Shown here: piece by piece, positions 1-26,303 of the stretch
How the letters are laid out: each line of letters opens with the position of its first letter
Numbering within the stretch: position 1 is the stretch's first letter
NCBI RefSeq assembly: GCF_003945235.1
Contig: NZ_RSDW01000001.1
Location: forward strand, 1,110,001 to 1,142,000
DNA length: 32,000 nt
From: Edaphobacter aggregans
GTDB lineage: Bacteria > Acidobacteriota > Terriglobia > Terriglobales > Acidobacteriaceae
Direction of reading: 5' to 3'
The notes under the pieces: generated by a model
What the model was told of the DNA's origin: nothing
The model's database searches: none
The model's input: only the letters and a program-made list of their open reading frames with translations
Made by a program: the position numbers and the translations under genes

Positions 1-2237
1 ATGGGGTCGTTGGTCTCGGGGAGGAGGTTGAGACTGGCTATCAGGCCGACGGGGGTTCCCTTCGGGATGGGGCCGATCTGGATACCTTGATCGTTGAAGA
101 GCCAGTCGAAGGTACCAGAGAGCGGGCCGCGCAGGCGCTGGAGGAAGTCGGGCAAATAGCCGTTGGCTACGCGGAGATAGCTGGTGTCGGTGGTGCGGTC
201 GATGGTGCCGGGGACTTTGTCTCCGAGGACAGAATCTTTCTCGCGCTTCTCGGGCCAGAGGAGCTGTTCGATGGAGTCCTGGAAGGAGTCGAGGCGGGCT
301 TCGACGGAGGGACTGGCGTTGAATTTGCCCAGGCTGTTGTTGAGCAGGAATGGCGCGCTGGACCAGACGCTGATGAGCGACGGCGGGCGGGTGTAGCCGC
401 GGCCTCCGGCGGGCAGGACGTAGGGCTTGGGCTCGCCGGTGAAGGGGTCGTAGATGGTGGCGGTTCCTGCAGAAGGGAGATCCTTGTAGGACTGGGAGGA
501 GAAGTTGTCCCAGATGTTGTTGCCGAGGGCGTTGGTGGCTAGTGGGCTGCAGGCGTTGGTCTGGAGGAGCGTGACGGGGACGCGGAGTTCGGTGGAGAGA
601 TAGTTGCCCTGGGTGAAGTCGGGGGCGAGGACTATGTCGCGCATCTTCTTTTTGAACTCGTCGGTCTTGGTCCATTCCCAGTAGCGGTTCCAGCAGTCCA
701 TGTAGCCGGAGCCGGCGCAGGCTGCGGGATCGGCGTTAGCTGGCGGGGGGGGGAATTTGCTGGAGTGGCAGCGGGCGCAGCGCTCGGCGAAGGCGATCTT
801 GCCGCGTGTGAGGACGGCTTTGTCGGTAGTGAGGTGCGCGGCTCCGCCGGGGGCGTCCTTGAGGAGGTGGGGTTCGGTGCTCTTGAGGAAGAAGAGCGCC
901 ATGTCGACGGTCTGGGCTTCGGTGGCCTCGAAGTAGCTGGAGTTGGCTCGGGCTACAGAGACTGGGATCGGGGTGACTTCCTGGCCGCCTACGAGGGCGT
1001 TGAAGTGGAGGAGCCACTCTTCGCTGAAGGTGCCGATGTTAAGGTAGACGCGGTTGAGTGCGGCGAGTGCGCCTACGGAGTCGGAGCCGTCCTTGAGGAC
1101 GCGCGGGGTCTGGACGATGTCAGGAGGGGTGAAGAAGCGGGTGAGGTAGCCGGAGGGGACGTAGTTGTTGAACTGCTTGTTGTCTTTTTGGCCGTCGGCT
1201 AGTTTCTCTTTGCCCCAGACCAGCGCTTGATCGAGGCGAGGTTTGAGGGAGTAGACGGCGTTCATGGTGCGGGGATTGTTGATGTTGTCGGTGGAGATGA
1301 GCGAGGTGTCGAGGGTGCCGGGGCGCGAGGTGTGGAAGAGCTGGAAGACGTAGCTATCGGCAGAAGGGTTCCAGTCGAAGATGCGGTCGATCCAGAAGTA
1401 TTGTGCGCCTACGTTGGAACTGAGGTTCTCCCATTTGGGGGCATCGGGGTTGTCGGGGGGCTTCACGGGGTTGGGACCGACGTGGCAGAAGGCGCAGGAC
1501 ATGCCTACGCGATAGGGCCGGACGAGGTCCTTCGAGAGGTAGTACTTGCTGTCGGTGTAGTAGCGGACGGGGTCCCACTTTTTGGCTGCGGCTTCATCAA
1601 AGGCGGGGTTGGGGAAAAGGCGGAGGCCGACGATGCCGGTGCCGTATCCATAGAAGGAGCCCGCGTCGATGTTCTTGCCGCGTGCGCCAATTTTGACGCC
1701 GGGATATTTCTGCGCGTTTTCGAAGGGATCAGGCGGGCAGCTGGGGTCGCGCTGGTCGAGCCAGAGGCCGAAGCGCTTGGGGTCGGGCCCGGTGGCCTTG
1801 ATGTAGCAGGGTTCGTTGACGAGGCCGAGGTATTCCCAGCGGTTGTCGCGGCTGGCTTTGAGGGCAGGATGGCTGCCGTCGCCTGGGTAGGAGGAGATGG
1901 TTTTGAGGAAGTCAAGATTACCTACGCTGGTGACGGAGAGGACGTCCCAGAGGCGGTCATCGCCTGCCGTCCAGACGAGCCAGGTGTTGCGGCCCTTGAT
2001 CTCGTCAGCGGTGAGCTGGATGCCGCCATCCATGTCGTGGAAGTAGTCTTCGTCGGCGGCTGGGAAGGAGCTGGCTGGGCGGTTGGCGAGTTTGGCTTCG
2101 TCCAAGACCTTGCCCGGGAGGCCGGGAGTGGTGTTGCAGCCTTGTGGCAGAAGGGCCAGCGCGATGAGTACGGCGATGGCGGCAATGGCGCGAAGAGGCT
2201 TGAGTGCTGCGAGTCTGTACCAGGAGAACTTTTGCAT
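1..2237 (-). CDS. Di-heme c-type cytochrome family lipoprotein (start present, 3' end cut by window edge)
   Basis: It is absent from the ORF track because it runs off the left edge. The reverse-strand frame opens at ATG 2237-2235 (GAGGGA 7 nt upstream) and stays open for 745 codons down to position 3. The hand translation begins MQKFSWYRLAALKPLRAIAAIAVLIALALLPQGCNTT, which is a signal peptide plus a lipobox-like LPQGC (Cys34 at 2136-2138). There are two c-type heme motifs, CAFCH (1482-1496) and CARCH (765-779). The plus-strand ORFs listed across 87-2339 are Gly/Val/Glu-rich antisense shadows. Confidence 0.8.
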   Translation of the reverse strand, partial: MQKFSWYRLAALKPLRAIAAIAVLIALALLPQGCNTTPGLPGKVLDEAKLANRPASSFPAADEDYFHDMDGGIQLTADEIKGRNTWLVWTAGDDRLWDVLSVTSVGNLDFLKTISSYPGDGSHPALKASRDNRWEYLGLVNEPCYIKATGPDPKRFGLWLDQRDPSCPPDPFENAQKYPGVKIGARGKNIDAGSFYGYGTGIVGLRLFPNPAFDEAAAKKWDPVRYYTDSKYYLSKDLVRPYRVGMSCAFCHVGPNPVKPPDNPDAPKWENLSSNVGAQYFWIDRIFDWNPSADSYVFQLFHTSRPGTLDTSLISTDNINNPRTMNAVYSLKPRLDQALVWGKEKLADGQKDNKQFNNYVPSGYLTRFFTPPDIVQTPRVLKDGSDSVGALAALNRVYLNIGTFSEEWLLHFNALVGGQEVTPIPVSVARANSSYFEATEAQTVDMALFFLKSTEPHLLKDAPGGAAHLTTDKAVLTRGKIAFAERCARCHSSKFPPPPANADPAACAGSGYMDCWNRYWEWTKTDEFKKKMRDIVLAPDFTQGNYLSTELRVPVTLLQTNACSPLATNALGNNIWDNFSSQSYKDLPSAGTATIYDPFTGEPKPYVLPAGGRGYTRPPSLISVWSSAPFLLNNSLGKFNASPSVEARLDSFQDSIEQLLWPEKREKDSVLGDKVPGTIDRTTDTSYLRVANGYLPDFLQRLRGPLSGTFDWLFNDQGIQIGPIPKGTPVGLIASLNLLPETNDP

Positions 2238-2256
2238 CGTTGTCCCTCGTGTTCGA

Positions 2257-3759
2257 TCAAACTCTGGCGGCGCGTGCAAGATATCGTAACGCACGCAGGC
2301 CGGGCAGGAAAAAATATGCTCCGCCACGGACAGTGGTGAAGCGCGGCACGTCTTGAAGTTGATGTCGTACGGTCCCGGCGACTGGAATAGAGAACGTGCT
2401 GGCGGGGCAGCCGGCTATGGGTTCGCGGTTGCCTAGCAGCGGGTCAGTCTCGCTGTCGAGGCCGTCGAATTTGGTGTTGTTGAGCCACGCGGCCTGGATG
2501 AATTCGAATTGGCGGCCGATGTTGGCGTTGAGACAGACGAACTCAAGCCCGGTTGGAGGTTCGTTGGGCGGCGCGGGCTCGAGGCGCTCGGCGGGGGAGA
2601 GTTTCGGGCCATACTCGCGACCTCTTCGCAGCAGACGATGGAAGCGGGTGGAGGCGATGAGGTCTTCGCGGATGGTCTTCTGGCCAAAGCCCAGTATGCG
2701 GATGAGCTTTTCCAGAGGCTCGGATGATGTGCCCGGGGGAAAGTCTGCGTTGCGTGGATTTGCGCGGCGGATGTGTGCGCCGAATGGGCAGCGGAAGCCA
2801 TCTGGATCGTCGTCGAAGGTGAACTGGTTCTGCTGGATGTCTGTAAGGTCGGGGCCTACGCCGGGGATGCTTTGGCTTGATTCGGGAAGGAGCGAGTCGC
2901 CGGACATTTTGCGACCGACTATCTTCTCGGCAAGGTCCTGACGCTGTGTGGGATCGGAGTTCACCTGCTGGTCGATGAATCGCCAGAAGCCGCGGACGTC
3001 CTGCTCGATCTGGCGGATGACGAGGTAGGTTCCGTTGCGGCCAATGTCTTTGTAGCCGGGAGAGTCTTCGGCGTCGGGGAGGTCGGCGTTGGAGTCGACG
3101 ATCTTTGGGCGTCCTGTGTATTCGCCGTACTCGTTTGGATAGCCCAGGACGAACTCGCCGAGCATGGTGATGTTTTCGTAGGTGAGTTTGTCGCCGGAAG
3201 GGTTTTTTTTGCGGTCCCAGTCGACGGTGGGGGTGCTGACGCCGTCGACGAAGCCGAAGGGCTCGACGCCGCCCATGTCGGAGGTGGGCAGGCATTGGAG
3301 GAGGGTGAAGCCGGAGTGGGTAAGGCCGGAATCGATGGTGCTCTTCCAGGAGTCGAAGTGGCCGGGTAGTGCGTAGAGCATGGCGACCATGTCGGGCACG
3401 CCGGAGGGGCCGCCCCAGTACCAGTGCTCGGGTGCATTGGCGCCGATGTCGCCGAGGCGGCGGGAGCGGTTGTCTTCGCCTGTGATGCCGGAAAGGAACT
3501 CGGCGGAGAAGCCGTTGAGGATCTCTGGGGAGATGCCGAGGCGTTGCAGTCCTTGTTGTGTGAAGGCCAGTTGCAGGGCGCAGGTGGGAGGGGGGTTCTG
3601 GATTTCGGCGGTGGAGACGGGAGCGGTTTGCAGCCAACGGGCAGCGGCAGCGGGGTCGTCGATGCGCAACAGGAGGAAGCAGGCCTCGGTGAGCTTGGCG
3701 TAACCGAAGCGTAGGAGTCCCTGCATGTCGCGATAGTCGACGTTTGTGAGAGGAGCCAT
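2257..3759 (-). CDS. DyP-type (dye-decolorizing) heme peroxidase, large form (500 aa)
   Basis: The ATG at 3759 was verified. DyP hallmarks are present: FGFVDGVS (GxxDG, Asp172 codon 3244-3246), the proximal-His context CPFGAHIRRANPR (His329 codon 2773-2775), RLLRRGREYG, QFEFIQAAWLNN and the C-terminal GGAYFFLP. No Sec or Tat signal is visible (MAPLTNVDYRDMQGLL). Confidence 0.9.
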   Translation of the reverse strand: MAPLTNVDYRDMQGLLRFGYAKLTEACFLLLRIDDPAAAARWLQTAPVSTAEIQNPPPTCALQLAFTQQGLQRLGISPEILNGFSAEFLSGITGEDNRSRRLGDIGANAPEHWYWGGPSGVPDMVAMLYALPGHFDSWKSTIDSGLTHSGFTLLQCLPTSDMGGVEPFGFVDGVSTPTVDWDRKKNPSGDKLTYENITMLGEFVLGYPNEYGEYTGRPKIVDSNADLPDAEDSPGYKDIGRNGTYLVIRQIEQDVRGFWRFIDQQVNSDPTQRQDLAEKIVGRKMSGDSLLPESSQSIPGVGPDLTDIQQNQFTFDDDPDGFRCPFGAHIRRANPRNADFPPGTSSEPLEKLIRILGFGQKTIREDLIASTRFHRLLRRGREYGPKLSPAERLEPAPPNEPPTGLEFVCLNANIGRQFEFIQAAWLNNTKFDGLDSETDPLLGNREPIAGCPASTFSIPVAGTVRHQLQDVPRFTTVRGGAYFFLPGLRALRYLARAARV

Positions 3760-3824
3760 GCCCTTGTTCTCGCTTCCCTTCTGCGGATTTAATTCGCAAC
3801 AGCTAACTGCTATTCCTCGACGTT

Positions 3825-5117
3825 TTAGAAGATCTTGATCCAGTCGTCGAGTTCTGAATCTGAGATGGTGTTTTGTTCGAGCCCATTGCGTATGAGTGAG
3901 TTGCGTTGCATGTCGTAGGCCGTGACGCCGGGTGCTGCGGTATACCAGACCTGTGTGGGTAACTGGTGACGACGGAGGTAATCCTTGAAGGGCTGCTCGG
4001 CTCTGGCGCCATCGAGGATAAGCCAGTTGGTTTTGGGGTAGCCGAGGCCGTTGCTGAAGACGATGTTGAGCCCCCAGTAGACCTTGTTGATGAAGTCGCC
4101 GTTGTACATTTCGAGACTGCCGTCGTAGTTGCTGGAGAAGTAGACACGGGTCTTGTCGATAAACACCCAGCGCGCGAATTGAATGGTTTTTACGCGACCC
4201 AGGAAACCGTGGGTGAAGATGTGACGCGCGGTGTACTCGATCGCGAAGAGGACGGCGATGATTGTCCAGCGTCGGAAGGGGCCGGGCTTGATGCTGCCAT
4301 AGGCGCTGAACTGATTGATGATGATTCGATCCTCAAGCTCGTCAAGGGAATGGACGAGGGCTGTGGTGGGGCGGGGCGCTATGACCGGATCGCGCAGCTC
4401 CTTCATGCGGAGTTGGATGAGAAAGAAGGGCAGATAAAGGACGATGAGCGGCAATAAGAGGAACAGCACAAGGGGAATGCCGATGCAGTGTGCGAGGTTC
4501 TTGATCTGCCAGGACAAGGGTGTAGGTTCGGGCGGCGTGAGAGTGAGTCGTCCGGCGGCTTGTTCCTGTTTGACGAAGGTGCGCAGCTCGTTCCATATCT
4601 GCCGTGGGGTAGCGCCGGTTGAAGCGCGTTGATTGAGATACCACTTTATTGCCATCCACAAATCGTTCTCTTCGCGAACCTGAACGACGGTTCGGCCAAC
4701 CCAGTTGACGTAGTTTGCGGATGGAGGACGCTCGTTATCTTCCATCCAGCGCAGGAGGTCGGCGGTGGGCGTGAAGGATTCGCAGAAGGAGAAGATTTGA
4801 CGCAGGCCGGGTTCTGCTTTGGCGACGAGTTCGCGGCGGAGGGCGTCGGCTGGACCATCGAAGTCGCAGAGGAAGGCGAGAAAGTTGGTGGGTGGGGGCG
4901 GCGTGGCTCCGTAGACGCGGAGGTCTTCGCGGGTATCGTCTTCAAGGATGACGAAGCGGGCGAAGTGCAGCGTGGCGAACTTTTCGAATGGGACGAGCGT
5001 GTTGGCGGGATTGGCTACGCCCGGCTCAAGATTCATGGTCGCAAGAAGCTGTCGCAGCGCGGGCTCGCGGCTCGCTACGATCGGTGCAACGACCATGATG
5101 GTGGATTGTGGAGTCAT
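3825..5117 (-). CDS. Membrane protein of unknown function (430 aa)
   Basis: The ORF track gives 3825-5294, but its first 59 codons overlap the upstream gene. The ATG at 5117 lies 17 nt after that gene's stop (5135) and has GGGGA upstream. The N-terminal soluble part reads MTPQSTIMVVAPIV..LHFARFVILEDD..FLCDFDGPADALRREL. One long hydrophobic segment, CIGIPLVLFLLLPLIVLYLPFFLIQL, falls at about 4410-4487. The C-terminal part reads FARWVFIDKTRVYFSSNYDGSLEMYNGDFINKVYWGLNIVFSNGLGYP. I recognise no family. Confidence 0.75.
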   Translation of the reverse strand: MTPQSTIMVVAPIVASREPALRQLLATMNLEPGVANPANTLVPFEKFATLHFARFVILEDDTREDLRVYGATPPPPTNFLAFLCDFDGPADALRRELVAKAEPGLRQIFSFCESFTPTADLLRWMEDNERPPSANYVNWVGRTVVQVREENDLWMAIKWYLNQRASTGATPRQIWNELRTFVKQEQAAGRLTLTPPEPTPLSWQIKNLAHCIGIPLVLFLLLPLIVLYLPFFLIQLRMKELRDPVIAPRPTTALVHSLDELEDRIIINQFSAYGSIKPGPFRRWTIIAVLFAIEYTARHIFTHGFLGRVKTIQFARWVFIDKTRVYFSSNYDGSLEMYNGDFINKVYWGLNIVFSNGLGYPKTNWLILDGARAEQPFKDYLRRHQLPTQVWYTAAPGVTAYDMQRNSLIRNGLEQNTISDSELDDWIKIF

Positions 5118-5134
5118 CGTATCCCCGTAGACGA

Positions 5135-5566
5135 TCAGAACTCCAGCGCGAAGTGGATGAGCCGGTCCTTCTTCCAGTAGACGAGGCCGAGGTAGAGGCC
5201 TGGCGAGATGAGGCGAATTTCGTCGCGGACCCAGTGGGCGACCATCGATGTCTCGGAGTAGTCGAGGACGACGCATTCTTTGTTGTCGAACCAACTGGCT
5301 CCCTGATAGACCTTGGCCACGATGGCGCTGATCCCGAAGACGGAGATGCGGTTGCGCAGCACGCCGGCCTGAGCGTCAAAGGTCTTGCCCTGCCAGGTGA
5401 AGATGCTGATGAACGCTGCTGTCTCTTTGGTAAAGACGGTGCCGGGGGCCACAATGGCGGTGCCTTTGGCTTCACCGTTGGGGATGGGGCCGGGAGCACC
5501 GGATTTGAAACAGTCGTCGAGCTGAGCACTCGTCATCTTGAGTAGTTGAGAGACGTCGTAGGGCAT
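5135..5566 (-). CDS. Small soluble protein of unknown function, paralog A (143 aa)
   Basis: The ORF-track start at 5572 is GTG. The ATG at 5566 gives MPYDVSQLL, which aligns residue for residue with MAYTAQQLL of the paralog at 7845. AAGGTGG ends 2 nt before this ATG. There is no signal peptide or TM segment. Shared motifs are IPNGEA.GTAIVA, WQGKTFDA, AIVA.VY.G.S.FD.KEC.VLDYS.TS, RDEIRLI.PG.YLGLVYW and IHFAL.F. Confidence 0.8.
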   Translation of the reverse strand: MPYDVSQLLKMTSAQLDDCFKSGAPGPIPNGEAKGTAIVAPGTVFTKETAAFISIFTWQGKTFDAQAGVLRNRISVFGISAIVAKVYQGASWFDNKECVVLDYSETSMVAHWVRDEIRLISPGLYLGLVYWKKDRLIHFALEF

Positions 5567-5707
5567 CGCCACCTTCGTCTGGACGGATTTTTAGAGTGGA
5601 ACCAGCGGCTCGCAGCAGAAGCGGACTTCCGCTACTCGCGTCAGTGCAACACTTTCCGGGGCCCTGTTGATGATGAGATGAGACGATATCGCCGTTGACC
5701 GGGCTTG

Positions 5708-7621
5708 TCAACGAATGTTTGCAGCAAGATCAGCCTCGCGCGCGGCCTGGAGGATTACGTCGGCGGCCTTCTCGGCGATCATGTAAATGGCGCTGGTGAT
5801 GAAGAAGCCCGGGGTGCGGGGGAAGACGGAGGCATCGACGACGCGAAGGCCCTGCGTGCCATGAACGCGGAAGTCACTGGTGAGAACTCCGTTGTGTTCA
5901 CGGGGGCCAATGGCGCAGGTGCAGGAGGCGTGATGGCCCCAGGCTTGATTGCGGATGAAGGTCTTCAGGTCTTCGTCCGACTGGAGGTGATCGCCGGGCA
6001 GTTCTTCTTCGGCGATGAGCTTGTTGTCCTTGAAGTGCTGGGTGATCTTGCGGACGAAGCGTATGCCTTCGACTACGGAGGCGAGGTCTTCGCCCTGGGT
6101 GTCGCTGCCCTCTTCGAAGTAGTGGAAGTTGATGTCTGGCGTGTCGCGTGGGTCGGCGGAACGCAGGGTTACTTTGCCTGCGCGATTTTTGGTGTGAGCT
6201 TTGAGGACGACCCATGTCATGTAGTTCAGGTTTTCGGCGAAGAGCGCGGAGTAATTTGGGAAGTAGCCTCGGAAGAGTCCGAGAAGGCCGAGGCAGAAGA
6301 TGTCGGGAGTCTCGCGGTCAGGGAACGAGCGCTTGAATGCTGTAAGCACTCCTCCGTTGGTGATGTATGGGCCGCATCCGCGCTGCCATTGTTCAAATTG
6401 CGGGTCGTCCTGAGCGAAACGTGCGCCACGAAATATTCTCCACTGGCTGAAGTTCATTCGGTTGACGACACCGACTTCGTAGCGGTCCTGCAGGTTTGTG
6501 CCGACGCCCGGAAGATCGACGCGGAGAGGAATGCTGTGTTGGACGAGCTGCTCTGCCGGGCCTATGCCGGAGAGCATGAGGAGTTGCGGCGTATTGAATG
6601 TGCCTCCGGCGAGGATGACCTCGCGAGTCGCGTAGGCTGTGCGGAGCTCACCCGCCTGCGAACTGGGTGCGGCGTGGGCGCGGTAGAGGTGTTTGCCCTT
6701 GAGGTACTCGACGCCGATGGCTCGGTTATTGCCGTCGAACAGGACTCGGGTGGCGAGGGCATCGAGCTCGATTCGGAGGAGTTCTGGGTGCTTCGTGGCT
6801 ACTTCGAGAACGCGCTCGCGGGCGCTTGTGCGTGCGTGGTTGGAGGTGCTGAGAGGTATGTAGCGGACTCCACCTGCAGCTTCGCGAACGAGGCGCCAGT
6901 CGTTCGGATCGAAGGCTCCCTTCCACAGCCAGCGTAGATGGTCGCGTTTGCTGCCTGCGTTTTTGAAGGCCTCCCAAGCAGAGAGGATGATCATTCTTAC
7001 GAGGGGGTGATCGAGCAAAGCTGAGAGGGGTGTTGCGCGTTCCGTGGAGAGCCAGCCGCGCCATCCGTGTCGCGTGGGATTGAATCCAAGGGCGGCGAGG
7101 AAGCGATGGAATTTACGGTGATGACAGTTTTCCAGGAGTTCGAAGTATCGACGCATTTGGGGTGCGCGCCAGGATTCATCGCCGGTCAACTCAGCTATCT
7201 CGTCCCAGTCGGTGTTGTGTGGATAGACGATGATCATCGCGTTGTGCGCTGTGCAGCCGCCCAAGGTTCCTGCGCGTGGGTAGAGGACGCCGTCTACACG
7301 CTGACCATCGACTGTCTCGAAATATTTGGGGTCCTGACACTGTTGCTTATGGTTTCCATAATGACGAACATAGAAGTCCCACTTGATGGCGTCGTTTTCT
7401 GAAGCGAGGCCATGGAATACGGGTACATCGTACTCGTTTGGCATGCCTCCGCTGGGTGGGACGGGCTGCTGTTGCTGGGCGGTTCTGGGATCGCCGCCCG
7501 CTTCAAGCAGAAGGACGGTTCGTCCGGACTCGGCAAGACGAGCAGCCAGGATGCCGCCACCGGCCCCGGAGCCGACGACGATGTATTCGGCGGTTACGTT
7601 TTGCGGATCTGCGCTGCTCAT
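5708..7621 (-). CDS. GMC-family FAD-dependent oxidoreductase (long form, 637 aa from ATG 7621)
   Basis: The FAD-binding EYIVVGSGAGGGILAARLAESG has its GxGxxG starting at residue 17 from ATG 7621. The GMC C-terminal active-site region is AWGHHASCTCAIGP..FRVHGTQGLRVVDASVFP. The ORF-track start at 7741 is a TTG lying inside the TTGACA hexamer of the divergent promoter-like site, and it adds 40 featureless residues. No signal peptide is present. A large internal insertion (about RRYFELLENCHHRKF to SNHARTSARERV) makes it longer than the ~530-560 aa I recall as typical for the family. Confidence 0.88.
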   Translation of the reverse strand: MSSADPQNVTAEYIVVGSGAGGGILAARLAESGRTVLLLEAGGDPRTAQQQQPVPPSGGMPNEYDVPVFHGLASENDAIKWDFYVRHYGNHKQQCQDPKYFETVDGQRVDGVLYPRAGTLGGCTAHNAMIIVYPHNTDWDEIAELTGDESWRAPQMRRYFELLENCHHRKFHRFLAALGFNPTRHGWRGWLSTERATPLSALLDHPLVRMIILSAWEAFKNAGSKRDHLRWLWKGAFDPNDWRLVREAAGGVRYIPLSTSNHARTSARERVLEVATKHPELLRIELDALATRVLFDGNNRAIGVEYLKGKHLYRAHAAPSSQAGELRTAYATREVILAGGTFNTPQLLMLSGIGPAEQLVQHSIPLRVDLPGVGTNLQDRYEVGVVNRMNFSQWRIFRGARFAQDDPQFEQWQRGCGPYITNGGVLTAFKRSFPDRETPDIFCLGLLGLFRGYFPNYSALFAENLNYMTWVVLKAHTKNRAGKVTLRSADPRDTPDINFHYFEEGSDTQGEDLASVVEGIRFVRKITQHFKDNKLIAEEELPGDHLQSDEDLKTFIRNQAWGHHASCTCAIGPREHNGVLTSDFRVHGTQGLRVVDASVFPRTPGFFITSAIYMIAEKAADVILQAAREADLAANIR

Positions 7622-7734
7622 GCGCTCGTCGATTGCCCTCTCTTCATCAAGTGCATCCCATCGTAGCTGTAGTGGATGTCGGCTGACTATGGATGTTCGC
7701 ACAAGGTTTGACGTCGTGCGAGATGTATTCCTGA

Positions 7735-7763
7735 TTGACAAAAAGACGGGGCGCGGTCATAGT
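7735..7763 (+). promoter_or_regulatory. Sigma-70-like promoter candidate for the right-arm operon (TTGACA-N17-CATAGT)
   Basis: TTGACA sits at 7735-7740, followed by a 17-nt spacer (7741-7757) and CATAGT at 7758-7763. This is about 80 nt upstream of ATG 7845, which itself has GAGGAG (7831-7836) at 8-nt spacing. The call rests on the sequence pattern only. Confidence 0.35.
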
Positions 7764-7844
7764 TGGCGGTATTCTCACCGGGCCCCCACACAACATCGAC
7801 TACGCTACTACGACCGATACGGTGGCGTATGAGGAGACCGAACT

Positions 7845-8285
7845 ATGGCGTACACCGCACAACAACTTTTGGCGATGCCCGAAAAACAGCTCGACGATCT
7901 TTTCTCCGCGAGTCCGGCAGGCGATATTCCTAATGGCGAAGCGGACGGGACGGCGATTGTCGCTTCGGACACGCCGTTTTCTTCCGAGATCGCTGCGATA
8001 GTCAATATCTTTAACTGGCAGGGCAAGACCTTCGACGCAGCTCATGGAACGCTTACGAACCGCATCCTTGCCTTCGGAGTGAATGCGATTGTGGCCCAGG
8101 TTTACAAGGGCACGAGCTTGTTTGATGGGAAAGAATGCATTGTGCTGGATTACTCGAAGACCTCGATTCTGGCCAAACATATTCGCGACGAGATTCGCCT
8201 GATTGGACCTGGGCAGTATCTGGGACTTGTGTACTGGGACACGAAGAAAACAATTCACTTTGCGCTGCAGTTTCCTGTCGCATGA
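7845..8285 (+). CDS. Small soluble protein of unknown function, paralog B (146 aa)
   Basis: It starts at an ATG with a strong SD (GAGGAG, 8 nt upstream). A gapless alignment to the 5135-5566 product gives 89 identities over 143 positions (hand count). There is no signal peptide or TM segment. Confidence 0.85.
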   Translation: MAYTAQQLLAMPEKQLDDLFSASPAGDIPNGEADGTAIVASDTPFSSEIAAIVNIFNWQGKTFDAAHGTLTNRILAFGVNAIVAQVYKGTSLFDGKECIVLDYSKTSILAKHIRDEIRLIGPGQYLGLVYWDTKKTIHFALQFPVA

Positions 8286-8321
8286 GCCGACGAGGTAAGT
8301 GGTTTTCATCTTCATCTCTGA

Positions 8322-9563
8322 ATGGATGGAAGAGCCTTGACTTCAAACCCTGATCGTCCGATACCGAAGGCTAATACTGGCTCCGCGTTTCTGAACTTTT
8401 TCTCTGATGCATCGATGGCCTTTGTGCATCTGGAGCGGCGGTTCGATCCGATCTTTCGGCCGGCATTCGACGCGTTGCTTCGCGATCCGATCGCAGCGCT
8501 CGTAACCGCTGTGATAAACGCGAAGCGCCCGAATGATGGATTGAAGATCGCCGAAGAAAAGCTGATGCCGAACGAAGAGGCTTACCTCGATTCGATCATC
8601 AACAGCTTTATCGCGCAGATGCGAGGGTTGTGGAAGCCGGGGATGTTCGAACGCGGGGGGAACACGAAGACTCATGGTATCGTGCGTGCCGAGTTTATCG
8701 TTCACGATGGCCTTGCGCCGGAGTTGCGTCATGGCATCTATGCAGAGCCACGGACGTATCCGGCATGGGTGCGCTTCTCTGGCCCGGGCCCTTATATAAC
8801 GCCCGATATCGACGACGTCGGTTTTATGAGCATCAGCATCAAGCTGATGGGCGTACCTGGGCCGAAGCTGATGGAGGAGGAGAAGTTTACGCAGGATATG
8901 TTCGGAGTCTCGACACCGACCTTTGTGACGCCCGACACCGAGGCCAATGCGCAGTTGCAGATCAACAGCCTGAAGAACGCGACGATCTTCCATTTTCTGA
9001 ACTTGCATCATCCGCATGTGTTGGATCTGATTATGCAGGGGTTGTGGACCAAGACGCAGAGCAGTCCGTTTGAGGCTCCCTACTTTAGCTGCGTACCTTA
9101 TTTACTTGGAGAGGGGCAGGCGATGCAGTACTCTGTGTGGCCGAGATCGGCTCGGAAGACACCTATACCGCGCCTTCCGTTCCGGCCCCCTGACGACTAT
9201 CTGCGCAATGCGATGGTTGCGACTCTCGCAAATGAAGACGTCGAATTTGATATTCGCCTGCAACTGCAGACGGAACCGTTTTTGATGCCGATTGAGAACA
9301 ATGGTGTGCTGTGGCCGGAGAAACTCTCGCCGCGGCGATCGGCGGCCACGCTGCGAATTCCTCGGCAGACGTTCAACTCGCCGGCGCAGATGGATTTTGC
9401 GCGGAAGCTCTCTTACAATCCTTGGCACTGCATTGCAGAGCATCGTCCCCTGGGGAATCAGAGCCGCGCTCGACGCCGAATGTACGACACGCTTTCAAGG
9501 TTCAGACATGAGATGAACGGCGTTCCGCTTTATGAGCCAACGGGAGATGAGGTCTTCGACTAG
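8322..9563 (+). CDS. Catalase-related heme protein (small catalase-fold clade, y4iL-like / allene-oxide-synthase-like)
   Basis: The ORF is 413 aa. Catalase-fold markers are the distal-His context GGNTKTHGIVRAEFIV (His118 codon 8673-8675), AWVRFSG and the proximal-Tyr context SRARRRMYDTLSRFR (Tyr388 codon 9483-9485). It is too short and too divergent to be a canonical catalase. The start is uncertain (ATG 8322 or ATG 8415, neither with a clear SD). Confidence 0.75.
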   Translation: MDGRALTSNPDRPIPKANTGSAFLNFFSDASMAFVHLERRFDPIFRPAFDALLRDPIAALVTAVINAKRPNDGLKIAEEKLMPNEEAYLDSIINSFIAQMRGLWKPGMFERGGNTKTHGIVRAEFIVHDGLAPELRHGIYAEPRTYPAWVRFSGPGPYITPDIDDVGFMSISIKLMGVPGPKLMEEEKFTQDMFGVSTPTFVTPDTEANAQLQINSLKNATIFHFLNLHHPHVLDLIMQGLWTKTQSSPFEAPYFSCVPYLLGEGQAMQYSVWPRSARKTPIPRLPFRPPDDYLRNAMVATLANEDVEFDIRLQLQTEPFLMPIENNGVLWPEKLSPRRSAATLRIPRQTFNSPAQMDFARKLSYNPWHCIAEHRPLGNQSRARRRMYDTLSRFRHEMNGVPLYEPTGDEVFD

Positions 9564-9580
9564 GGAAAGGTTACGGTGCT

Positions 9581-10762
9581 ATGGACTCCGACTCGCGTAA
9601 ACCTGCGCTTCAACTCACCGAAGGAGGTCCCCTCTATCGTATTGAAAAACGATTGAAGTTTATTCGGGAGAGATCACCGCAGGTGCTTACGGTGGCCGGC
9701 TTGTCGATCCTTGTGACGTGGGTGCCGCTGTTCCTCCTGTCCGCGGCGCAAGGTTCGGCATACCACACAACAACCGTAATGGTCCCGTTTCTGCGTGATT
9801 TTGCGACATATACGCGGTTTCTTATCGCGATGCCCATCCTTATCCTGGCCGAGACATTCCTTGGACCACGGTTGGCCAAGGCTGCGGAGTTCTTTGTAAC
9901 GTCAGGACTTGTTCTGGAGAAGGACTACACGCGCTTCGATGCAGCGGTGGAGCGCGGGCTTCGACTGCGAGATTCCACAGTAGCGGAACTGCTTCTCGTT
10001 GCCGGAAGTTATGCGATCTCTTTGACTGCGCTACATAGCATGGCTGTTCATGCTGCGACGTGGTCCGCGAGTTATTCGGGGGCGGGCTTCCGTTTGACGT
10101 GGGCTGGATGGTGGCTCGTGGGATTCTGTGCGCCGTTCCTCAATTTTTTGTTACTGCGCTGGGTATGGCGGCTCTTTCTATGGGGCCAGTTTCTATGGAG
10201 CATGAACAAACTCGATCTGCAATTATTTCCACCACACCCGGACGAGTCGGGAGGATTGGGATTTATTGGGAGAGCGCAGCAGTTTTTTGGGATCATCCTG
10301 TTTGGCTATTCAGCAGCCACGGCTGGCGTTCTGGCCGATACAGTGATCTATGACAAGGTACCGTTGCAACACTTTGCAGGGCCGCTGGTGGCCTACGTTG
10401 TCATCGCGGTAGGAATCGTCATCGCTCCCCTTCTGGTGTTCGCTGTACGGATGCACGAGACAAAGATCCACGGCCTCTATCAATACAGTTCGTTGGCCAC
10501 CAGTTACACTTCGGCGTTTCATCACAGGTGGATCAACAAAGATCCGGAGGCAAGCGAACCTCTGCTTGGGACCTCCGACATCCAGTCGCTCGCCGATTTA
10601 GGTAACAGCTTCGGCTTTATCAAGGGCATGGATGATCTTCCTATGAATCCGCGCACTCCTATCCATCTTGCTCTTGCCTGTCTGATACCGATGGCGCCGT
10701 TGTTGCTGATCGTCATACCGTTGAAGGAGATGGTGAAGCTACTCTTCAAGGCCGTGCTTTAG
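9581..10762 (+). CDS. Polytopic membrane protein of unknown function (393 aa, about 7 hydrophobic segments)
   Basis: The ATG lies 17 nt after the upstream stop, with GGGAAAGG upstream. Hydrophobic stretches include VLTVAGLSILVTWVPLFLLSAA, YTRFLIAMPILILAETFL, VAELLLVAGSYAISLTAL, WAGWWLVGFCAPFLNFLLL, FFGIILFGYSAATAGVLA, LVAYVVIAVGIVIAPLLVFAV and IHLALACLIPMAPLLLIVIPL. I recognise no family. Confidence 0.75.
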   Translation: MDSDSRKPALQLTEGGPLYRIEKRLKFIRERSPQVLTVAGLSILVTWVPLFLLSAAQGSAYHTTTVMVPFLRDFATYTRFLIAMPILILAETFLGPRLAKAAEFFVTSGLVLEKDYTRFDAAVERGLRLRDSTVAELLLVAGSYAISLTALHSMAVHAATWSASYSGAGFRLTWAGWWLVGFCAPFLNFLLLRWVWRLFLWGQFLWSMNKLDLQLFPPHPDESGGLGFIGRAQQFFGIILFGYSAATAGVLADTVIYDKVPLQHFAGPLVAYVVIAVGIVIAPLLVFAVRMHETKIHGLYQYSSLATSYTSAFHHRWINKDPEASEPLLGTSDIQSLADLGNSFGFIKGMDDLPMNPRTPIHLALACLIPMAPLLLIVIPLKEMVKLLFKAVL

Positions 10763-11834: not shown

Positions 11835-14800
11835 TTAGAACAAAATCCTCGCCGACGCCTGCAAACTGCGTCCGCCACCGACTCCATTCACGCTGCCCTG
11901 TCCACTACCCAGAGTGCTCGTGACCTGTCCGAAGCTGGTCGCTGAACAGCAGTTGTTGCTCGTCGGATTCGCGAACTGCGGTGTATTGCTCAACTGGAAC
12001 GCATCGAACCGAACCTCCGCAGAGGCTTCCCGGACGATTGGGAAGCTTTTGAAGATGGAGAGGTTGTCCTGAATGTAACCGGGCCCTCGGAACTGATTTC
12101 TTCCTGTATTGCCCACACCGACGTTCTGCGGTGTGCAGGCACCCGACGTTGGGCACCCACTCGGAACGGAGAACGCAGTCGGATCAAACCAGTGATTTGC
12201 TGAGCCGACCCCGTGGGTTACATGGTAGGTACCCGTCAGGTTTCCTGTTTGGGTCGTTCCGGGAGTGTTGAGATTTGCCCCGTTTGTGGCAACAGTAAAC
12301 GGCTGACCGGAAAGCACGGAGATGATGCCCGCAAGCTTCCATCCACCGAGGGTCAGAGCTCCGATTCCCGAGTTCAGAAGGTTGTGGCCGCGCCCGAACG
12401 GAAGCTCATAGGTAAAGCTCTGTTCGAAGTTCAACGCTCGGTCGTAGTCGTTGGGAGCGTAGTTCCTCCGTTGATCGACAAAGAACGACAAACCACCATC
12501 ATCGCCGGCGGTGTATCCCAACCCCTTGCCCCACGTAAACGCCGACGTCAAAGCAAGGCCCCTGGTGAAGCGCTTGTTTAACTGGGCTTGCATCGACTGG
12601 TAGTTCGATGAGAATCCGTAAAAGATAACGTTGGTCGCAGCTGTGCGGCTATAGGGAGCCACATTTTCCGGATCCGATGCCGCGCCTCCGCCATACGTGC
12701 TCGGCAGATTCGAGTTCTGATTGGTTGGAATACGAACGCCGTGATTGGCGACATACGCTATCTGCATCGACATGCTATACGGCAGGGCTTGCTGCACTGC
12801 AACATTCCACGACACTGCATAAGGGTTTTTGAAATTTAGGGGAATCTGATAAAACGTCTGAGTTTTCAGCGCCTGAGTCACTGGGATGATTCCGTTAGAG
12901 GGAATTACGACGGGGATTGGAGCCGGGAAGCCAGCGCCGAAAGTCGCAGGCGTGACCCCATCCGGGCCAACTGCCGGAGTGAAAGCACTCGATCCGACTG
13001 GTCCGTAACTGTTGTTCGCTCTGACCGGGAAGTTATAGGCGTAGCTATTATCCGCATAGGGCATATAGCTCATGCCAAAGCCTGCGCGAACGACAGTGTT
13101 ATCCGTCACACGATAGGAAACCCCGGTGCGTGGAGCGAAATATCGGTATTGCGTCTGCATGCCCAGGTTGCTGGGGTTGCCGCCGACGCCGGCGATGACA
13201 AGGTTGTGATTGATCGGATCGTAGTTGGAGAAACCACCAGCCTTTCTCGGGGTCGCTGGAGGATAAAACTCCCAGCGCACGCCAAGATCGACAGTCAGCT
13301 TCGGAGTTGCCTGCCACTTGTCACTTGCGTATGCGAAGAACCACCACTGCCGGTATGCAGGGAAGTATGTATTCAAATCTCGGCCCACCGAACTCGGCAG
13401 GTCAAACAGGAAGCTGGCGACGTCGTTTGCAATGTTTGTGGTTCCGCGTTTATCCGAAGTCTGCACGTCGGAAAAGGTAAACGCGCCGCGTGGGCTGAAG
13501 GTTTGGAACTGCAAAAGGTCATCCCGAACTCGGCGAAGGTCAACTCCGGCCTTCACAGTGTGGTTATGGACAACCTTGGTCCAGTTGTTGACGAAATCGA
13601 TATTGGACTCGCCGCGAATCCATGGGACCGAAGCCGAATATCCGATCAGGGTCCCTGTGAATCCTCCGTTGATCGTCAGTCCCACCTGTCCGCTGGTGTA
13701 CTGGTCGATATTGACCCCCGGAACTCCGAGCGTCGTAGCATCATTCGAGCCGTAGTCGCTGGGCTCTGCATTGTTGCGCAGATGGGCGACACCAACACGC
13801 ACCTCGGTGAACAATGTTGGAGAAAAGACGTGAGTGTAATTTACGCCTGTGCTGTATGACGTTTGCGCGCCTGTTCCTTCGAAGCCACCACCTGCAGGTC
13901 CGCCAAGAAACGCGCCAAAAGCCGGCGCCTGGTACGTATTCACACGCTGGAAGCTGTAACGTCCACTAATGTTGTTCCTTTCATTCAGCGTGAAGTCGAT
14001 CTTTGTGTCGAAACTGTCCGTCGACTTTGTGAATGGGAGAACCGTCGTGTAGTTGTTGGCGGGATTCGACATCGGCAGAGTAGCGTTCAGCTTCCCGTAT
14101 TGCTGCGCCGCCGCGTTAAGCTTCTGCAGGATAGCCAGCGAGACTCCGTTGACACGGTTGGCCGGAATCATGTTGTTCGCGAAAGGTGTCCGCGGACCGG
14201 TTGCAGTGCCGTCACCAGTGGCCGGATCGAATACCTGCCCTGCCTTAAAACCATTCGCATTCACCGCCCCGAGCGTCGAACTGAGATCGATAAAGCCCTG
14301 TGCATTCGGTGTGTAATATCGCGGATCGGGAATCGTAAAGGTGCTGGCGACCGACTCATGGTCCGAGGAGTGCACATAATCGCCAAAGAAGAACAGCTTG
14401 TCCCGGAAGATCGGCCCGCCTATCGAACCGCCAAAGTTGTTGTACGAGAGATGCCCAAGCGGACCTCCGAAGTACGAACGCGCATTCACAGCATTGTTCT
14501 GGATATACTCAAATGCTGTTCCGTGAAACGCATTAGTGCCCGACTTCAGCGTCACGTTTGTCACGCCGCCCATCGCACGCCCAAGCTCCGCCTCAAAGTT
14601 GTTCGTTGAGATATCGACCGACTGGATTGCATCCGCTGGCGGAATGATGATCTGTAACAGCCCGGTGCGCTCGTCGTCGTCAACACCTTCGATCTGGTAA
14701 AGATTGCCCATGCGCGGCAGCCCATTCACCTCCGTCTGCAACGAACTCTGCGCGTTGAAGAACTGGGAATGCTGAAAGACCGCCGGCGCCGTTCCCGGCA

Positions 14801-15305
14801 CCAGGTTCAGCAAGGACTGGAAGTTGCGGTTCGTACCGAGGGGTAGCTCAGCGACCTCGCGCGCTTCTATCTTGGTGCTGATGTCGGCGCGGTCGGTCTG
14901 GAGCATGGGTGGCGCCGTCGTGACGAGAACGGTCTCGGTGACGCTGCCGGTAACCATATCGACATCGACACGAGTGGAGGAGTTGCTGAGCACGTCGATA
15001 TTCTGATGAGTCTCTTTCTTGAAGCCCATGGCTTCGACGATGACGGTATACGTACCGGGCTTTATATCTGGAAGGGTGTAGTTGCCGCTGTCATTGGTGA
15101 TGGTTTGATAGACGACGCTTGTCGCCGTCTCGGTCGCGGTAACCTTGGCCTTTGCGATGGTTGCCCCACTGGGGTCCGATACCGTACCAAGCAGAGTTGC
15201 GCTTACAGCCTGACCAAAAAGGAGAGAGGAAGAACTCAAAAGAAGAAGGATAACGACATAGCCGAAGAACTTGCGTGCGAACACAGACAACCTCCAAGTC
15301 GTCAT
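11835..15305 (-). CDS. TonB-dependent outer-membrane receptor with N-terminal carboxypeptidase-regulatory-like domain (1156 aa)
   Basis: The signal peptide is MTTWRLSVFARKFFGYVVILLLLSSSSLLFGQA. It is followed by LLGTVSDPSGATIAKAKVTATE..NDSGNYTLPDIKPGTYTVIVEAMGFK (CarboxypepD_reg-like), then a plug and a long beta-barrel. The C-terminal residue is aromatic (..ARILF). Confidence 0.9.
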   Translation of the reverse strand: MTTWRLSVFARKFFGYVVILLLLSSSSLLFGQAVSATLLGTVSDPSGATIAKAKVTATETATSVVYQTITNDSGNYTLPDIKPGTYTVIVEAMGFKKETHQNIDVLSNSSTRVDVDMVTGSVTETVLVTTAPPMLQTDRADISTKIEAREVAELPLGTNRNFQSLLNLVPGTAPAVFQHSQFFNAQSSLQTEVNGLPRMGNLYQIEGVDDDERTGLLQIIIPPADAIQSVDISTNNFEAELGRAMGGVTNVTLKSGTNAFHGTAFEYIQNNAVNARSYFGGPLGHLSYNNFGGSIGGPIFRDKLFFFGDYVHSSDHESVASTFTIPDPRYYTPNAQGFIDLSSTLGAVNANGFKAGQVFDPATGDGTATGPRTPFANNMIPANRVNGVSLAILQKLNAAAQQYGKLNATLPMSNPANNYTTVLPFTKSTDSFDTKIDFTLNERNNISGRYSFQRVNTYQAPAFGAFLGGPAGGGFEGTGAQTSYSTGVNYTHVFSPTLFTEVRVGVAHLRNNAEPSDYGSNDATTLGVPGVNIDQYTSGQVGLTINGGFTGTLIGYSASVPWIRGESNIDFVNNWTKVVHNHTVKAGVDLRRVRDDLLQFQTFSPRGAFTFSDVQTSDKRGTTNIANDVASFLFDLPSSVGRDLNTYFPAYRQWWFFAYASDKWQATPKLTVDLGVRWEFYPPATPRKAGGFSNYDPINHNLVIAGVGGNPSNLGMQTQYRYFAPRTGVSYRVTDNTVVRAGFGMSYMPYADNSYAYNFPVRANNSYGPVGSSAFTPAVGPDGVTPATFGAGFPAPIPVVIPSNGIIPVTQALKTQTFYQIPLNFKNPYAVSWNVAVQQALPYSMSMQIAYVANHGVRIPTNQNSNLPSTYGGGAASDPENVAPYSRTAATNVIFYGFSSNYQSMQAQLNKRFTRGLALTSAFTWGKGLGYTAGDDGGLSFFVDQRRNYAPNDYDRALNFEQSFTYELPFGRGHNLLNSGIGALTLGGWKLAGIISVLSGQPFTVATNGANLNTPGTTQTGNLTGTYHVTHGVGSANHWFDPTAFSVPSGCPTSGACTPQNVGVGNTGRNQFRGPGYIQDNLSIFKSFPIVREASAEVRFDAFQLSNTPQFANPTSNNCCSATSFGQVTSTLGSGQGSVNGVGGGRSLQASARILF

Positions 15306-15381
15306 GAAAAGACATGGCGCTAAAAAACTTATTGTTTGAAGAGCGAACGAACATTACAGATAACGTTCCCATTAGTCAACA

Positions 15382-15391
15382 GATTTAAATC
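15382..15391. promoter_or_regulatory. Perfect 10-bp palindrome GATTTAAATC in the divergent intergenic region
   Basis: It was read directly from the sequence. It lies in the AT-rich 165-bp spacer between the receptor gene (minus) and the second TIM-barrel gene (plus). Function is unknown. Confidence 0.2.
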
Positions 15392-15470
15392 GACTGCCAA
15401 TGAAACGAATGATTGCGGTTACCTCTGGGAAAACAATTGAAGTGGACGACCACATACGGAGGTCGGTAGT

Positions 15471-16340
15471 ATGCGCAGCATGAACTATTCCATGACTCGC
15501 CGTAACCTGCTGCGTGGGGGCACGATGCTAACTGCCTCCGCATTCCTTTCGTCGACAACGAGCGCGCTGGCCTACGATAACCACTCGACTAATTCTTCGC
15601 CGATACGGCTTGGCATCGCCAGCTATACGTTCCGGAACTTCGACGCAGATCACTTGATTGGGTTCATGAAGGAACTGAATACTCCGTATCTCAACCTGAA
15701 AGATGTGCATCTGCCGATGACACCTGCTGATCAGGTTGCCCCGCGCGCTGCGAAGTTCAGAGATGCGGGCTTTAAGCTGACTGCGGCTGGGACGATCACT
15801 TTTGCGAAGGATGAAGATGACGACATTCGGATGAAGTTCGAGTATTGCAAGGCTGCGGGCATTCCTCTGATCATCGGCGCACCGACGCATCAGGTGCTTC
15901 CGCGGCTGGAAAAGTTTGTGAAGGAGTACAACATCGGAGTTGCTATCCACAATCACGGCCCCGAGGACAAGAACTTCCCTTCTCCGCTGGACGTGTTGGC
16001 CGCAGTGGAGAAGCTGGATCCGCGGATTGGCTGCTGCATCGATGTAGGGCACACCATGCGCGCTGGCACTGACCCGGTTGCAGCGATCCGCAAGGCTGGG
16101 CCGCGTGTTCTCGACATTCACATGAAAGATCTGGCCGACGGAACCAAGAAGGAGAGTCAGGTCGCCGTGGGTGATGGAGTGATGCCGGTGCCAGCTATCT
16201 TTAAGGCTCTGATCGACATTCACTACGCGGGCAACGTGGACCTGGAGTACGAGATCTTCCCCGACAATCCCATGCCGGGCGTGATCAAGAGCTTTGCGTT
16301 TATGCGCGGCGTGCTTGCTGGGATGGGCTATAAAGGCTAG
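15471..16340 (+). CDS. Tat-exported xylose-isomerase-like TIM-barrel protein (second copy, not a close paralog of 10759-11730)
   Basis: GGAGG (15458-15462) lies 8 nt before ATG 15471. The twin-arginine signal is MRSMNYSMTRRNLLRGGTMLTASAFLSS. Family-typical features include IRLGIASYTF, VAIHNHG, IDVGH and DLEYE. Confidence 0.85.
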   Translation: MRSMNYSMTRRNLLRGGTMLTASAFLSSTTSALAYDNHSTNSSPIRLGIASYTFRNFDADHLIGFMKELNTPYLNLKDVHLPMTPADQVAPRAAKFRDAGFKLTAAGTITFAKDEDDDIRMKFEYCKAAGIPLIIGAPTHQVLPRLEKFVKEYNIGVAIHNHGPEDKNFPSPLDVLAAVEKLDPRIGCCIDVGHTMRAGTDPVAAIRKAGPRVLDIHMKDLADGTKKESQVAVGDGVMPVPAIFKALIDIHYAGNVDLEYEIFPDNPMPGVIKSFAFMRGVLAGMGYKG

Positions 16341-16346
16341 CCAGCC

Positions 16347-18764: not shown

Positions 18765-18918
18765 CTTGATCTGGACCTTTCACATCGATTGTTTGTTAAA
18801 CACAAAGTAGCTTATGTCTCTGATCGAGACAGCCAAGTGGATCAGCACCTGGTGCTTTGATAAGGATAAGCAAGACTTCAAACCTTTTAGTTGAATGAGA
18901 ACACGTTGTCAAAGACAG

Positions 18919-21267: not shown

Positions 21268-21327
21268 GGCTTCGGTTCGATGATAGCTACTTCACAAGCC
21301 ATTTGCGGCTGCCAGGGAATATAGCGC

Positions 21328-22062: not shown

Positions 22063-22073
22063 GATAGTTCCTC

Positions 22074-23600: not shown

Positions 23601-23609
23601 CGTTCAGCC

Positions 23610-25421: not shown

Positions 25422-25450
25422 AGCTGACTCCTCCGTCCAGCCGCGAAACT

Positions 25451-26134: not shown

Positions 26135-26193
26135 TTCATGCCATCTCCGGAGAGCGTTACAGCCCTGACTCTCAATGCCTGTCTCTTTATATA

Positions 26194-26205
26194 ACGTTTA
26201 AACGT
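26194..26205. promoter_or_regulatory. Perfect 12-bp palindrome ACGTTTAAACGT upstream of the regulator gene
   Basis: It was read directly from the sequence. It lies 60-71 nt upstream of the regulator ATG and abuts TTATATAAAG (a -10-like box) on the minus strand. Function is unknown. Confidence 0.25.
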
Positions 26206-26303
26206 GACTGATTTGAGCCATCGCCCCCAGATGCAATTGGATACGATCAAATAACAACCTGGAGACATCGTGGTGACATTCGTCTTCAGGTTTTGACCTG
26301 TTA

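Follow-up and report, generated by a model that had tools for sequence, protein, structure and literature searches.

Two small genes and their transcription units

The window analysed here, a 32,000-nucleotide stretch of the Edaphobacter aggregans genome (contig NZ_RSDW01000001.1, positions 1,110,001 to 1,142,000 of the forward strand), contains two related genes for small proteins, copy A and copy B, each of which directly precedes a larger gene. A gap of 17 nt separates copy A from the downstream gene for hyp430, an uncharacterized membrane protein of 430 residues, and one of 36 nt separates copy B from the downstream gene for a catalase-related haem protein. Both open reading frames were found where an earlier note on this DNA had placed them. 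The two genes and the elements in front of them are as follows.

5135..5566, minus strand: copy A, small protein of a predicted barrel family, 143 residues (ATG at 5566, stop codon at 5135-5137)
5683..5711, minus strand: promoter-like element TTGACA-17-TATCGT upstream of copy A, overlapping the stop codon of a GMC-family gene
7735..7763, plus strand: promoter-like element TTGACA-17-CATAGT between the divergent genes, upstream of copy B
7845..8285, plus strand: copy B, small protein of the same predicted barrel family, 146 residues

An upstream GTG at 5572 would extend copy A to 145 residues; the ATG is favored because homologues are 143 residues long and because a Shine-Dalgarno-like AAGGTGG fits this start. 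Copy B is preceded by the Shine-Dalgarno sequence GAGGAG. The two proteins align over their full length without gaps, with 89 identities and 104 positives over 143 positions (BLASTP E = 2e-67), which identifies them as true paralogues and matches exactly the ungapped count of 89 made by hand in the earlier note. All of the conserved blocks quoted there are present, and the codons of the shared peptide GTAIVA (GGCACCGCCATTGTGGCC in copy A and GGGACGGCGATTGTCGCT in copy B) are as reported. At the nucleotide level, the genes are 62.7% identical overall and 39.9% identical at the third positions of codons, the third base is common to only eight of the 30 fourfold sites in conserved residues and the Nei-Gojobori method gives a dN of 0.31 and a proportion of synonymous differences (pS) of 0.76, in agreement with the saturation of silent sites that had been claimed. 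Purifying selection on both copies, also claimed, is evident from the omega values between the window and its orthologues at genome loci L001, L002, L003 and L009, which are 0.065-0.12 for copy A and 0.05-0.08 for copy B. The longest run of identical nucleotides that they share is only 18 nt, which gives no indication of gene conversion. Copy A and copy B form a paralogous pair: they are similar over their full length, are each under purifying selection and have orthologues in separate clades (see below).

The suggestion that each copy heads its arm of the divergent locus holds for copy B, but copy A follows the GMC gene (5708..7621, or to 7741 in its longest form, minus strand) on the same strand. 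Copy A nevertheless probably heads a transcription unit, because its own promoter-like element overlaps the GMC stop codon and because an equivalent motif (TTGACAA-N17-xATAGT/ATATT) is found ∼90-150 nt upstream of 82 of the 86 family genes examined, with conservation among the copy A orthologues; the frequency of the motif in random 223-nt segments is 2.9%. The order of this unit is probably copy A, hyp430, DyP-type peroxidase and cytochrome c, and the small gene probably heads a transcription unit nearly everywhere. The 5' untranslated region that follows the motif is ∼80-110 nt in length and variable in sequence, and an Rfam search of window positions 5000-8400 returned no known RNA.

Conserved neighborhood of haem enzymes

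The surroundings of the small gene were surveyed by tblastn at 80 genome loci, almost all from Acidobacteriaceae, with partners defined as genes within 8 kb of the small gene. At least one partner is present at 76 of the 80 loci: hyp430 at 60, the catalase-related gene at 59, the DyP and GMC genes at 57 each and the di-haem cytochrome at 56. Of the four loci that appear to lack a partner, L044 has a RoxA-like cytochrome in its vicinity. A metagenome scan with a sub-alignment as query, in which contigs of at least 3 kb were counted, gave a similar picture for relatives at 45-58% identity, with a partner on 50 of 52 contigs. Across the genome loci and metagenome contigs, the partners are haem enzymes (DyP, catalase-related proteins, cytochromes P450 and RoxA-like di-haem cytochromes) or hyp430. 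Three layouts recur: small gene, hyp430, DyP and catalase-related gene; P450, small gene and two RoxA-like di-haem cytochromes; and tandem pairs of small genes. Elsewhere, the small gene is 3-27 nt from the catalase-related gene or overlaps it. Random occurrence with respect to redox neighbors, a possibility raised in the earlier note, is not what is seen; the association is strongly nonrandom in both samples (76/80 loci and 50/52 contigs). The two TIM-barrel proteins that had been named as further candidate partners, and with them a link to glycoside metabolism, are not conserved (TIM323 is found at one of the 80 loci). Our search of the literature on DyP and GMC clusters in Acidobacteria found no description of the present cluster. 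At L034, the neighbors of the small gene encode S53 peptidase, lycopene-cyclase-like, TIR-domain and WD40 proteins.

The genes that accompany the two copies in the window are listed below.

1..2237, minus strand: di-haem c-type cytochrome of at least 745 residues, running off the window, with an LPQGC lipoprotein-type signal and haem-binding motifs CAFCH and CARCH
2257..3759, minus strand: DyP-type haem peroxidase, 500 residues
3825..5117, minus strand: hyp430, uncharacterized 430-residue membrane protein
5708..7621, minus strand: GMC-family FAD oxidoreductase with Pfam domains GMC_oxred_N and GMC_oxred_C; the reading frame is open to a TTG at 7741
8322..9563, plus strand: catalase-related haem protein, 413 residues, with invariant Arg384 and Tyr388 corresponding to the proximal R-x-x-x-Y motif of catalases
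9581..10762, plus strand: mem393, 393-residue polytopic membrane protein downstream of the catalase-related gene

The cytochrome is 77% identical to an 830-residue protein of L083, has homologues at 56-58 of the 80 genome loci and has no Pfam match. The product of 2257-3759 is, as judged by its similarity to characterized DyPs (PDB entries 8re3, with E = 1.7e-42, 7anv, 4g2c and 4au9), a DyP-type peroxidase, and it matches TIGR01413 with E = 4e-18 and 65.8 bits, which is under the curated cutoff of 100.5 bits for that model. The GMC protein probably starts near Met41 (coordinate 7621), where the homologue alignments begin (residues 37-41). The 'catalase-like' label given earlier to the 413-residue neighbor of copy B is supported weakly but specifically. 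The protein has no match to the Pfam Catalase model and, as a single sequence, it finds the coral allene oxide synthase (AOS) 1u5u as its nearest solved structure, with E = 0.94; a profile search of the PDB returned coral AOS structures as its sole matches (1u5u, E = 0.009; 3dy5, E = 0.048). mem393 is found only at L001, L002 and L003 and is thus lineage-specific and not part of the core cluster.

The 430-residue partner of copy A has 3,827 homologues, of which P0393 (430 residues) is 100% identical, and matches no Pfam or NCBIfam model; sequence comparison with the PDB also gave no significant match. Its structure model has an N-terminal ferredoxin-like domain, with weak matches to ABM/SchA-like folds, and the sequence contains a hydrophobic helix of ∼40 residues with a central proline and an internal repeat in which the motif HFAR[FW] occurs twice. 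A 14-residue segment with the pattern VFSNGxGYPxTNW bears a suggestive resemblance to the GXXDG region of DyPs (GFVDGVSTPTVDW); the comparison of hyp430 with the DyP of the window by hhalign was not significant (probability 0.2%).

The distribution of the two copies bears on their history. Both are present only in the window and at L001, L002, L003 and L009. Copy B shares 82-84% identity with the L004 and L005 proteins and copy A 76-78% with P0137 and P0138, compared with 62% between copy A and copy B. Each copy is therefore closer to single-copy homologues elsewhere than to its partner, in keeping with the old split proposed in the earlier note. In a neighbor-joining bootstrap tree, the copy A clade (99%) joins P0138, P0140 and P0142 at 75%, and copy B groups with the L004 and L005 proteins, the clade of copy B and its closest orthologues being supported at 92%. 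P0138 is encoded by the sole small gene on its contig, which occupies the position between GMC and hyp430. The copies are never sisters; the deeper nodes have bootstrap values below 25%, and neither duplication within the locus nor acquisition is favored. An ancient duplication with losses and the acquisition of one copy from another cluster type are both possible.

Six loci that are closest to the window by their other cluster genes (L004, L005, L011, L015, L017 and L018) are split in the same way but lack copy A. The gap between hyp430 and GMC at these loci contains no open-reading-frame remnant of a decayed copy A, and a promoter motif of the copy A type precedes hyp430 in five of the six (L004, L005, L011, L017 and L018), a pattern compatible with loss of copy A there. 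The catalase-related genes beside B-type small genes encode proteins 64-94% identical to that of the window, and the identity is only 45-48% where the only small gene stands in front of hyp430, with the catalase-related gene on the opposite strand; the latter loci are L065 and L068-L079, with small proteins about equally similar to both copies, and L083, with an A-type protein. In the tandem pairs of L146 and L164, the first copy is A-like (66-69% identical) and the other is of the cytochrome type. Together, the identity pattern of the catalase-related proteins and these two tandem pairs would fit an arrangement of one small protein per partner. The tandem pairs as a whole (L109, 2045-2944; L146, 7043-8393; L147, 4396-5308; L164, 2744-3801) are independent, and their members, which are 49-58% identical to each other, are sited between a large cytochrome and RoxA-like cytochromes.

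The two arms also differ in codon usage. The minus arm (cytochrome c, DyP, hyp430, copy A and GMC; 1-7621) has a C fraction at third codon positions (C3) of 0.53-0.68 and a G+C fraction (GC3) of 0.69-0.83. C3 is 0.25-0.28 in the plus arm (copy B, catalase-related gene and mem393; 7845-10762) and 0.29-0.46 in the other genes of the window. The excess of C-ending codons in the minus arm might be due to expression level, to strand bias or to a separate origin of that arm; L009 has no such excess in its arm. The right half of the window (11835-31200) is unrelated to the cluster and contains the following.

11835-15305: TonB-type outer-membrane barrel protein
15471-16340: second xylose-isomerase-like TIM barrel
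16347-18764: GH31 glycosidase
18919-21267: heavy-metal P-type ATPase
23610-26134: histidine kinase and response regulator pair
26491-31200: surface protein of 1,569 residues with β-helix and Ig domains

Predicted fold and candidate functions

The family is large: copy B retrieves 5,453 clusters at 90% identity and copy A 3,210 (E ≤ 1e-3), a family profile retrieves 1,302 clusters at 50% identity and nearly all of the members are named 'hypothetical protein'. Neither copy matches any Pfam or NCBIfam model at permissive thresholds (E ≤ 10 for Pfam). Trp58, Gly60 and Arg118 are invariant in members down to ∼40% identity, and Lys61, Asn72, Ser91, Asp94, Asp102, Tyr103, Ser107, Arg114, Asp115, Glu116, Gly127 and Phe139 are nearly invariant over the same range; none of the residues conserved family-wide is a His, Cys or Met. 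In the best AlphaFold2 (AF2) model of copy B, which has a predicted local distance difference test (pLDDT) score of 82, three short helices are followed by eight consecutive strands. The sole strong structural match identified by Foldseek is PDB entry 4mve, which superimposes over its full length (148 columns, TM-scores of 0.64 and 0.63, probability 1.0, E = 3.4e-4) with 14% sequence identity, and almost all of the weaker matches are lipocalins, fatty-acid-binding proteins (FABPs) and bile-acid-binding proteins. Alignments A1 and A3, used as profile hidden Markov models against PDB sequences, yielded nothing above chance level and did not detect 4mve, and Foldseek against viral structures gave no meaningful match. 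From the model, we infer that the fold consists of three short helices and an eight-stranded antiparallel lipocalin-like barrel.

The earlier note had loosely compared the small proteins with GXWXG/DUF4334-type proteins. This comparison is not borne out by Pfam: neither copy matches PF14232 or PF14231 in hmmscan at E ≤ 10, and 92 members scanned one by one (37 from alignment A2, including P0169, and 55 from A3) gave no DUF4334 or GXWXG match. The GXWXG family is defined by a G-x-W-x-G motif. In the small family, Trp58 and Gly60 are part of a motif that reads F-x-W-Q-G-K, with Phe and not Gly two residues before the Trp. The link survives only as a lead, through the UniRef name of P0169 ('DUF4334 domain-containing protein'), a 71% identical homologue, and through 4mve, which we presume may represent the GXWXG/DUF4334 fold.

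Taking neighborhood and predicted fold together, our leading explanation, put forward tentatively, casts the small protein as an accessory subunit dedicated to one partner, whose lipocalin-like barrel would bind, at the membrane, either a hydrophobic substrate or an oxygenated intermediate that is unstable. The family would be the signature small component of a modular and widespread bacterial haem-dependent oxidative gene cluster, and each member would take up its ligand at the membrane surface and exchange it, in either direction, with the enzyme encoded directly downstream. In the lineage of E. aggregans, an ancestral operon may have been split into two divergent units with one copy each, copy A serving the membrane-anchored hyp430 together with DyP and the di-haem cytochrome, and copy B serving the catalase-related protein that resembles AOS. 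We infer lipid binding, partner specificity and an oxylipin substrate in this scheme.

Several observations weigh against this explanation. The five AF2 models have pLDDT scores of 82, 62, 46, 44 and 43, so that only one is confident; the alignment behind the model is shallow; and the similarity to lipocalins and FABPs is weak (E of 0.07-0.3, TM-scores of 0.35-0.43). The near-invariant charged segment R-D-E-I-R, and the D-Y-S segment, suit a catalytic site or a protein interface equally well, and the charged motifs are conserved strongly enough to point to either. Three of the 80 genome loci (L031, L034 and L043) have no usual partner inside 8 kb. The substrate is assigned through guilt by association, and the 32 kb of the window contain neither an α-dioxygenase-like gene nor a patatin gene (see below). 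Finally, fusions to cytochromes place the small domain in the cytoplasm, according to prediction, and haem c in the periplasm; direct hand-over of a ligand to the fused cytochrome would be awkward because the two are on opposite sides of the membrane.

The shared cofactor of the partners raises the question of whether the ligand could be haem itself, the small protein being a haem-binding or haem-delivery protein for the haem enzymes of the cluster. Haem is common to most partners (DyP, the catalase-related protein, P450, di-haem cytochromes c and an α-dioxygenase-like peroxidase described below). Lipocalin-like barrels such as nitrobindin and the nitrophorins are able to bind haem, and in the small family Tyr103 is nearly invariant and the basic residues Lys61, Arg114 and Arg118 could bind propionates. 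We nevertheless consider this role quite improbable. The absence of a family-wide His, Cys or Met argues against it, as does the nature of hyp430, an actual fusion partner that is not a recognizable haem protein. Haem c is attached in the periplasm by dedicated machinery, whereas most family members lack a signal peptide. A generic supply of haem would also leave one dedicated paralogue per partner unexplained.

Natural fusions connect the small domain physically with proteins of its neighborhood. In P0256 and P0323, it is joined to a hyp430 moiety that is 37-40% identical to hyp430 over its full length; an assignment of these two proteins as fusions to a catalase-related protein was rejected, as the partner is hyp430. 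P0263 and P0271 consist of the small domain, a transmembrane helix and a RoxA-like di-haem cytochrome, and P0326 is a P450 followed by the small domain. On a Streptomyces plasmid, the gene order is ferredoxin, ferredoxin reductase, P450 and small gene. Some family members have signal peptides and some have C-terminal membrane anchors; most have no signal peptide. Signal-peptide, anchored and other fused members are covered by P0352, P0353, P0384 and P0385, by P0259 and P0287 and by P0376, P0257 and P0250. Other apparent fusions, to acetoacetate decarboxylase-like, GrpB and DUF4062 domains, are possibly gene-calling artifacts. In other lineages, the cytochromes fused or adjacent to the small domain carry a RoxA-like cytochrome c domain.

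Such fusions would also be expected of a ligand-free docking or regulatory module that tethers cytosolic enzymes to membrane components or gates their activity. The small domain is N-terminal to membrane-anchored proteins and C-terminal to P450, some members are tail-anchored, the charged ladder of Arg114, Glu116 and Arg118 on one strand face could form an interface and the gene, with its highly conserved promoter-like motif, probably heads a transcription unit. Ligand binders, on the other hand, are the more typical proteins to have a barrel of such a size and a conserved motif of the interior type; secreted versions exist and no similarity to known adaptor or regulatory domains was found. 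On balance, a pure docking role appears improbable.

With regard to the substrate, four independent lines make it most likely that the cluster acts on fatty acids and their hydroperoxides. A gene of the animal haem peroxidase family (∼920-980 residues) lies within 8 kb of the small gene at 32 of 166 loci (including L028, L030, L032, L033, L045, L088, L093, L095, L098, L118, L122-L126, L134-L141, L152 and L165), and the only PDB relatives of its product are plant fatty-acid α-dioxygenases (4kvj and 4hhr, E of 5e-54 to ∼1e-54). Patatin-like lipases are encoded beside ∼11 loci, and the closest relative of the cluster-associated P450 is P450 BM3, a fatty-acid hydroxylase. To these is added the resemblance of the catalase-related protein to coral AOS.

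The same resemblance suggests a further role for the barrel, as an enzyme or product-steering ('dirigent') protein analogous to plant allene oxide cyclase (AOC) that cyclizes or isomerizes the unstable product of the adjacent catalase-related, P450 or di-haem enzyme. Copy B is directly upstream of a protein whose sole PDB relatives are catalase-related allene oxide synthases, and plant AOC is itself a β-barrel that is complexed with AOS (PMC6218421). Polar residues are strongly conserved throughout the family (Asp102, Tyr103, Arg114, Asp115, Glu116, Arg118, Lys61 and Asn72), and the small and catalase-related proteins are the most conserved in the cluster (72-84% identity, versus ∼55% for hyp430 and DyP). 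Against this, there is no sequence match to AOC or to any enzyme family, and AOC and dirigent structures are outside the top 50 Foldseek matches. The partners also include hyp430, P450 and cytochrome c, so that one chemistry would have to fit many partners, and the formation of an allene oxide by the catalase-related protein is presumed. We therefore regard a cyclase-like role as unlikely.

On a larger scale, the locus may belong to an undescribed bacterial oxylipin pathway of Acidobacteriota and other soil and aquatic lineages, in which the barrel of ∼145 residues would be the catalytic or product-steering counterpart of AOC or dirigent proteins, with partner-specific paralogues. A patatin-like lipase would free fatty acids, an α-dioxygenase-like or di-haem enzyme would convert them to hydroperoxides and the catalase-related, P450 and DyP enzymes would transform the latter. 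We hold this complete scheme to be doubtful.

The accessory-subunit explanation would make the small protein one of a known kind, a small barrel accessory protein in a lipid-oxidizing haem-enzyme pathway; the family, the modular cluster and the partner-specific paralogues appear to be undescribed, and our literature search found no published function for the small family or hyp430. The family is among the most conserved parts of the modular haem-enzyme cluster, itself abundant in soil Acidobacteriota and present in many other lineages. If its members are carriers or cyclase-like, they would offer a handle on bacterial oxylipin and lipid-peroxide metabolism, of which little has been mapped beyond Pseudomonas and cyanobacteria, and the small gene with its promoter-like motif would be a simple genomic marker for such clusters. 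The paralogue pair is a natural experiment on partner specificity: the same predicted fold in the same cell, with different downstream partners.

Comparison with known systems

The closest structural counterpart, 4mve, is Tcur_1030 of Thermomonospora curvata, a structural-genomics entry of the same size as the small protein and of unknown function, for which we found nothing functional in the literature. The GXWXG/DUF4334 proteins are likewise similar-sized proteins of unknown function and share with the small family a W-x-G element, a later D/R-rich strand, a hydrophobic L-G motif and a terminal F-x-L-x-F; the small family differs in that it lacks the Gly with which G-x-W-x-G begins. The literature search on DUF4334/GXWXG returned neither genomic nor functional information.

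AOC, FABPs and lipocalins resemble the predicted fold of the small protein in being small antiparallel β-barrels; their ligands derive from fatty acids. The likeness to AOC extends, in genomic logic only, to the position of copy B beside an AOS-like catalase-related gene. Plant AOC forms complexes with AOS to channel the unstable allene oxide and has structural relatives among barrel Diels-Alderases and dirigent proteins (PMC6218421). No sequence homology to AOC, FABPs or lipocalins is detectable and the polar motifs of the small family are unlike those of FABPs and lipocalins; for AOC, neither copy has a Pfam match and no AOC structure appears among the top 50 Foldseek matches.

For the cluster as a whole, there is a published precedent (2014) for the core logic in the gene pair of Nostoc punctiforme that encodes a 10S-dioxygenase and a catalase-related hydroperoxide lyase. 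A small barrel protein is not mentioned in the literature that we found on the Nostoc and coral systems, and the 32 kb of the window, unlike these systems, contain no dioxygenase. The likeness lies in the same two-enzyme logic, a haem dioxygenase of the peroxidase-cyclooxygenase superfamily together with a catalase-related protein, and, for the coral AOS-lipoxygenase, in the catalase-related neighbor, which is closest to coral AOS. The present cluster is much larger than either and adds DyP, GMC, hyp430, di-haem cytochromes c, P450, patatin and the small barrel to this common core.

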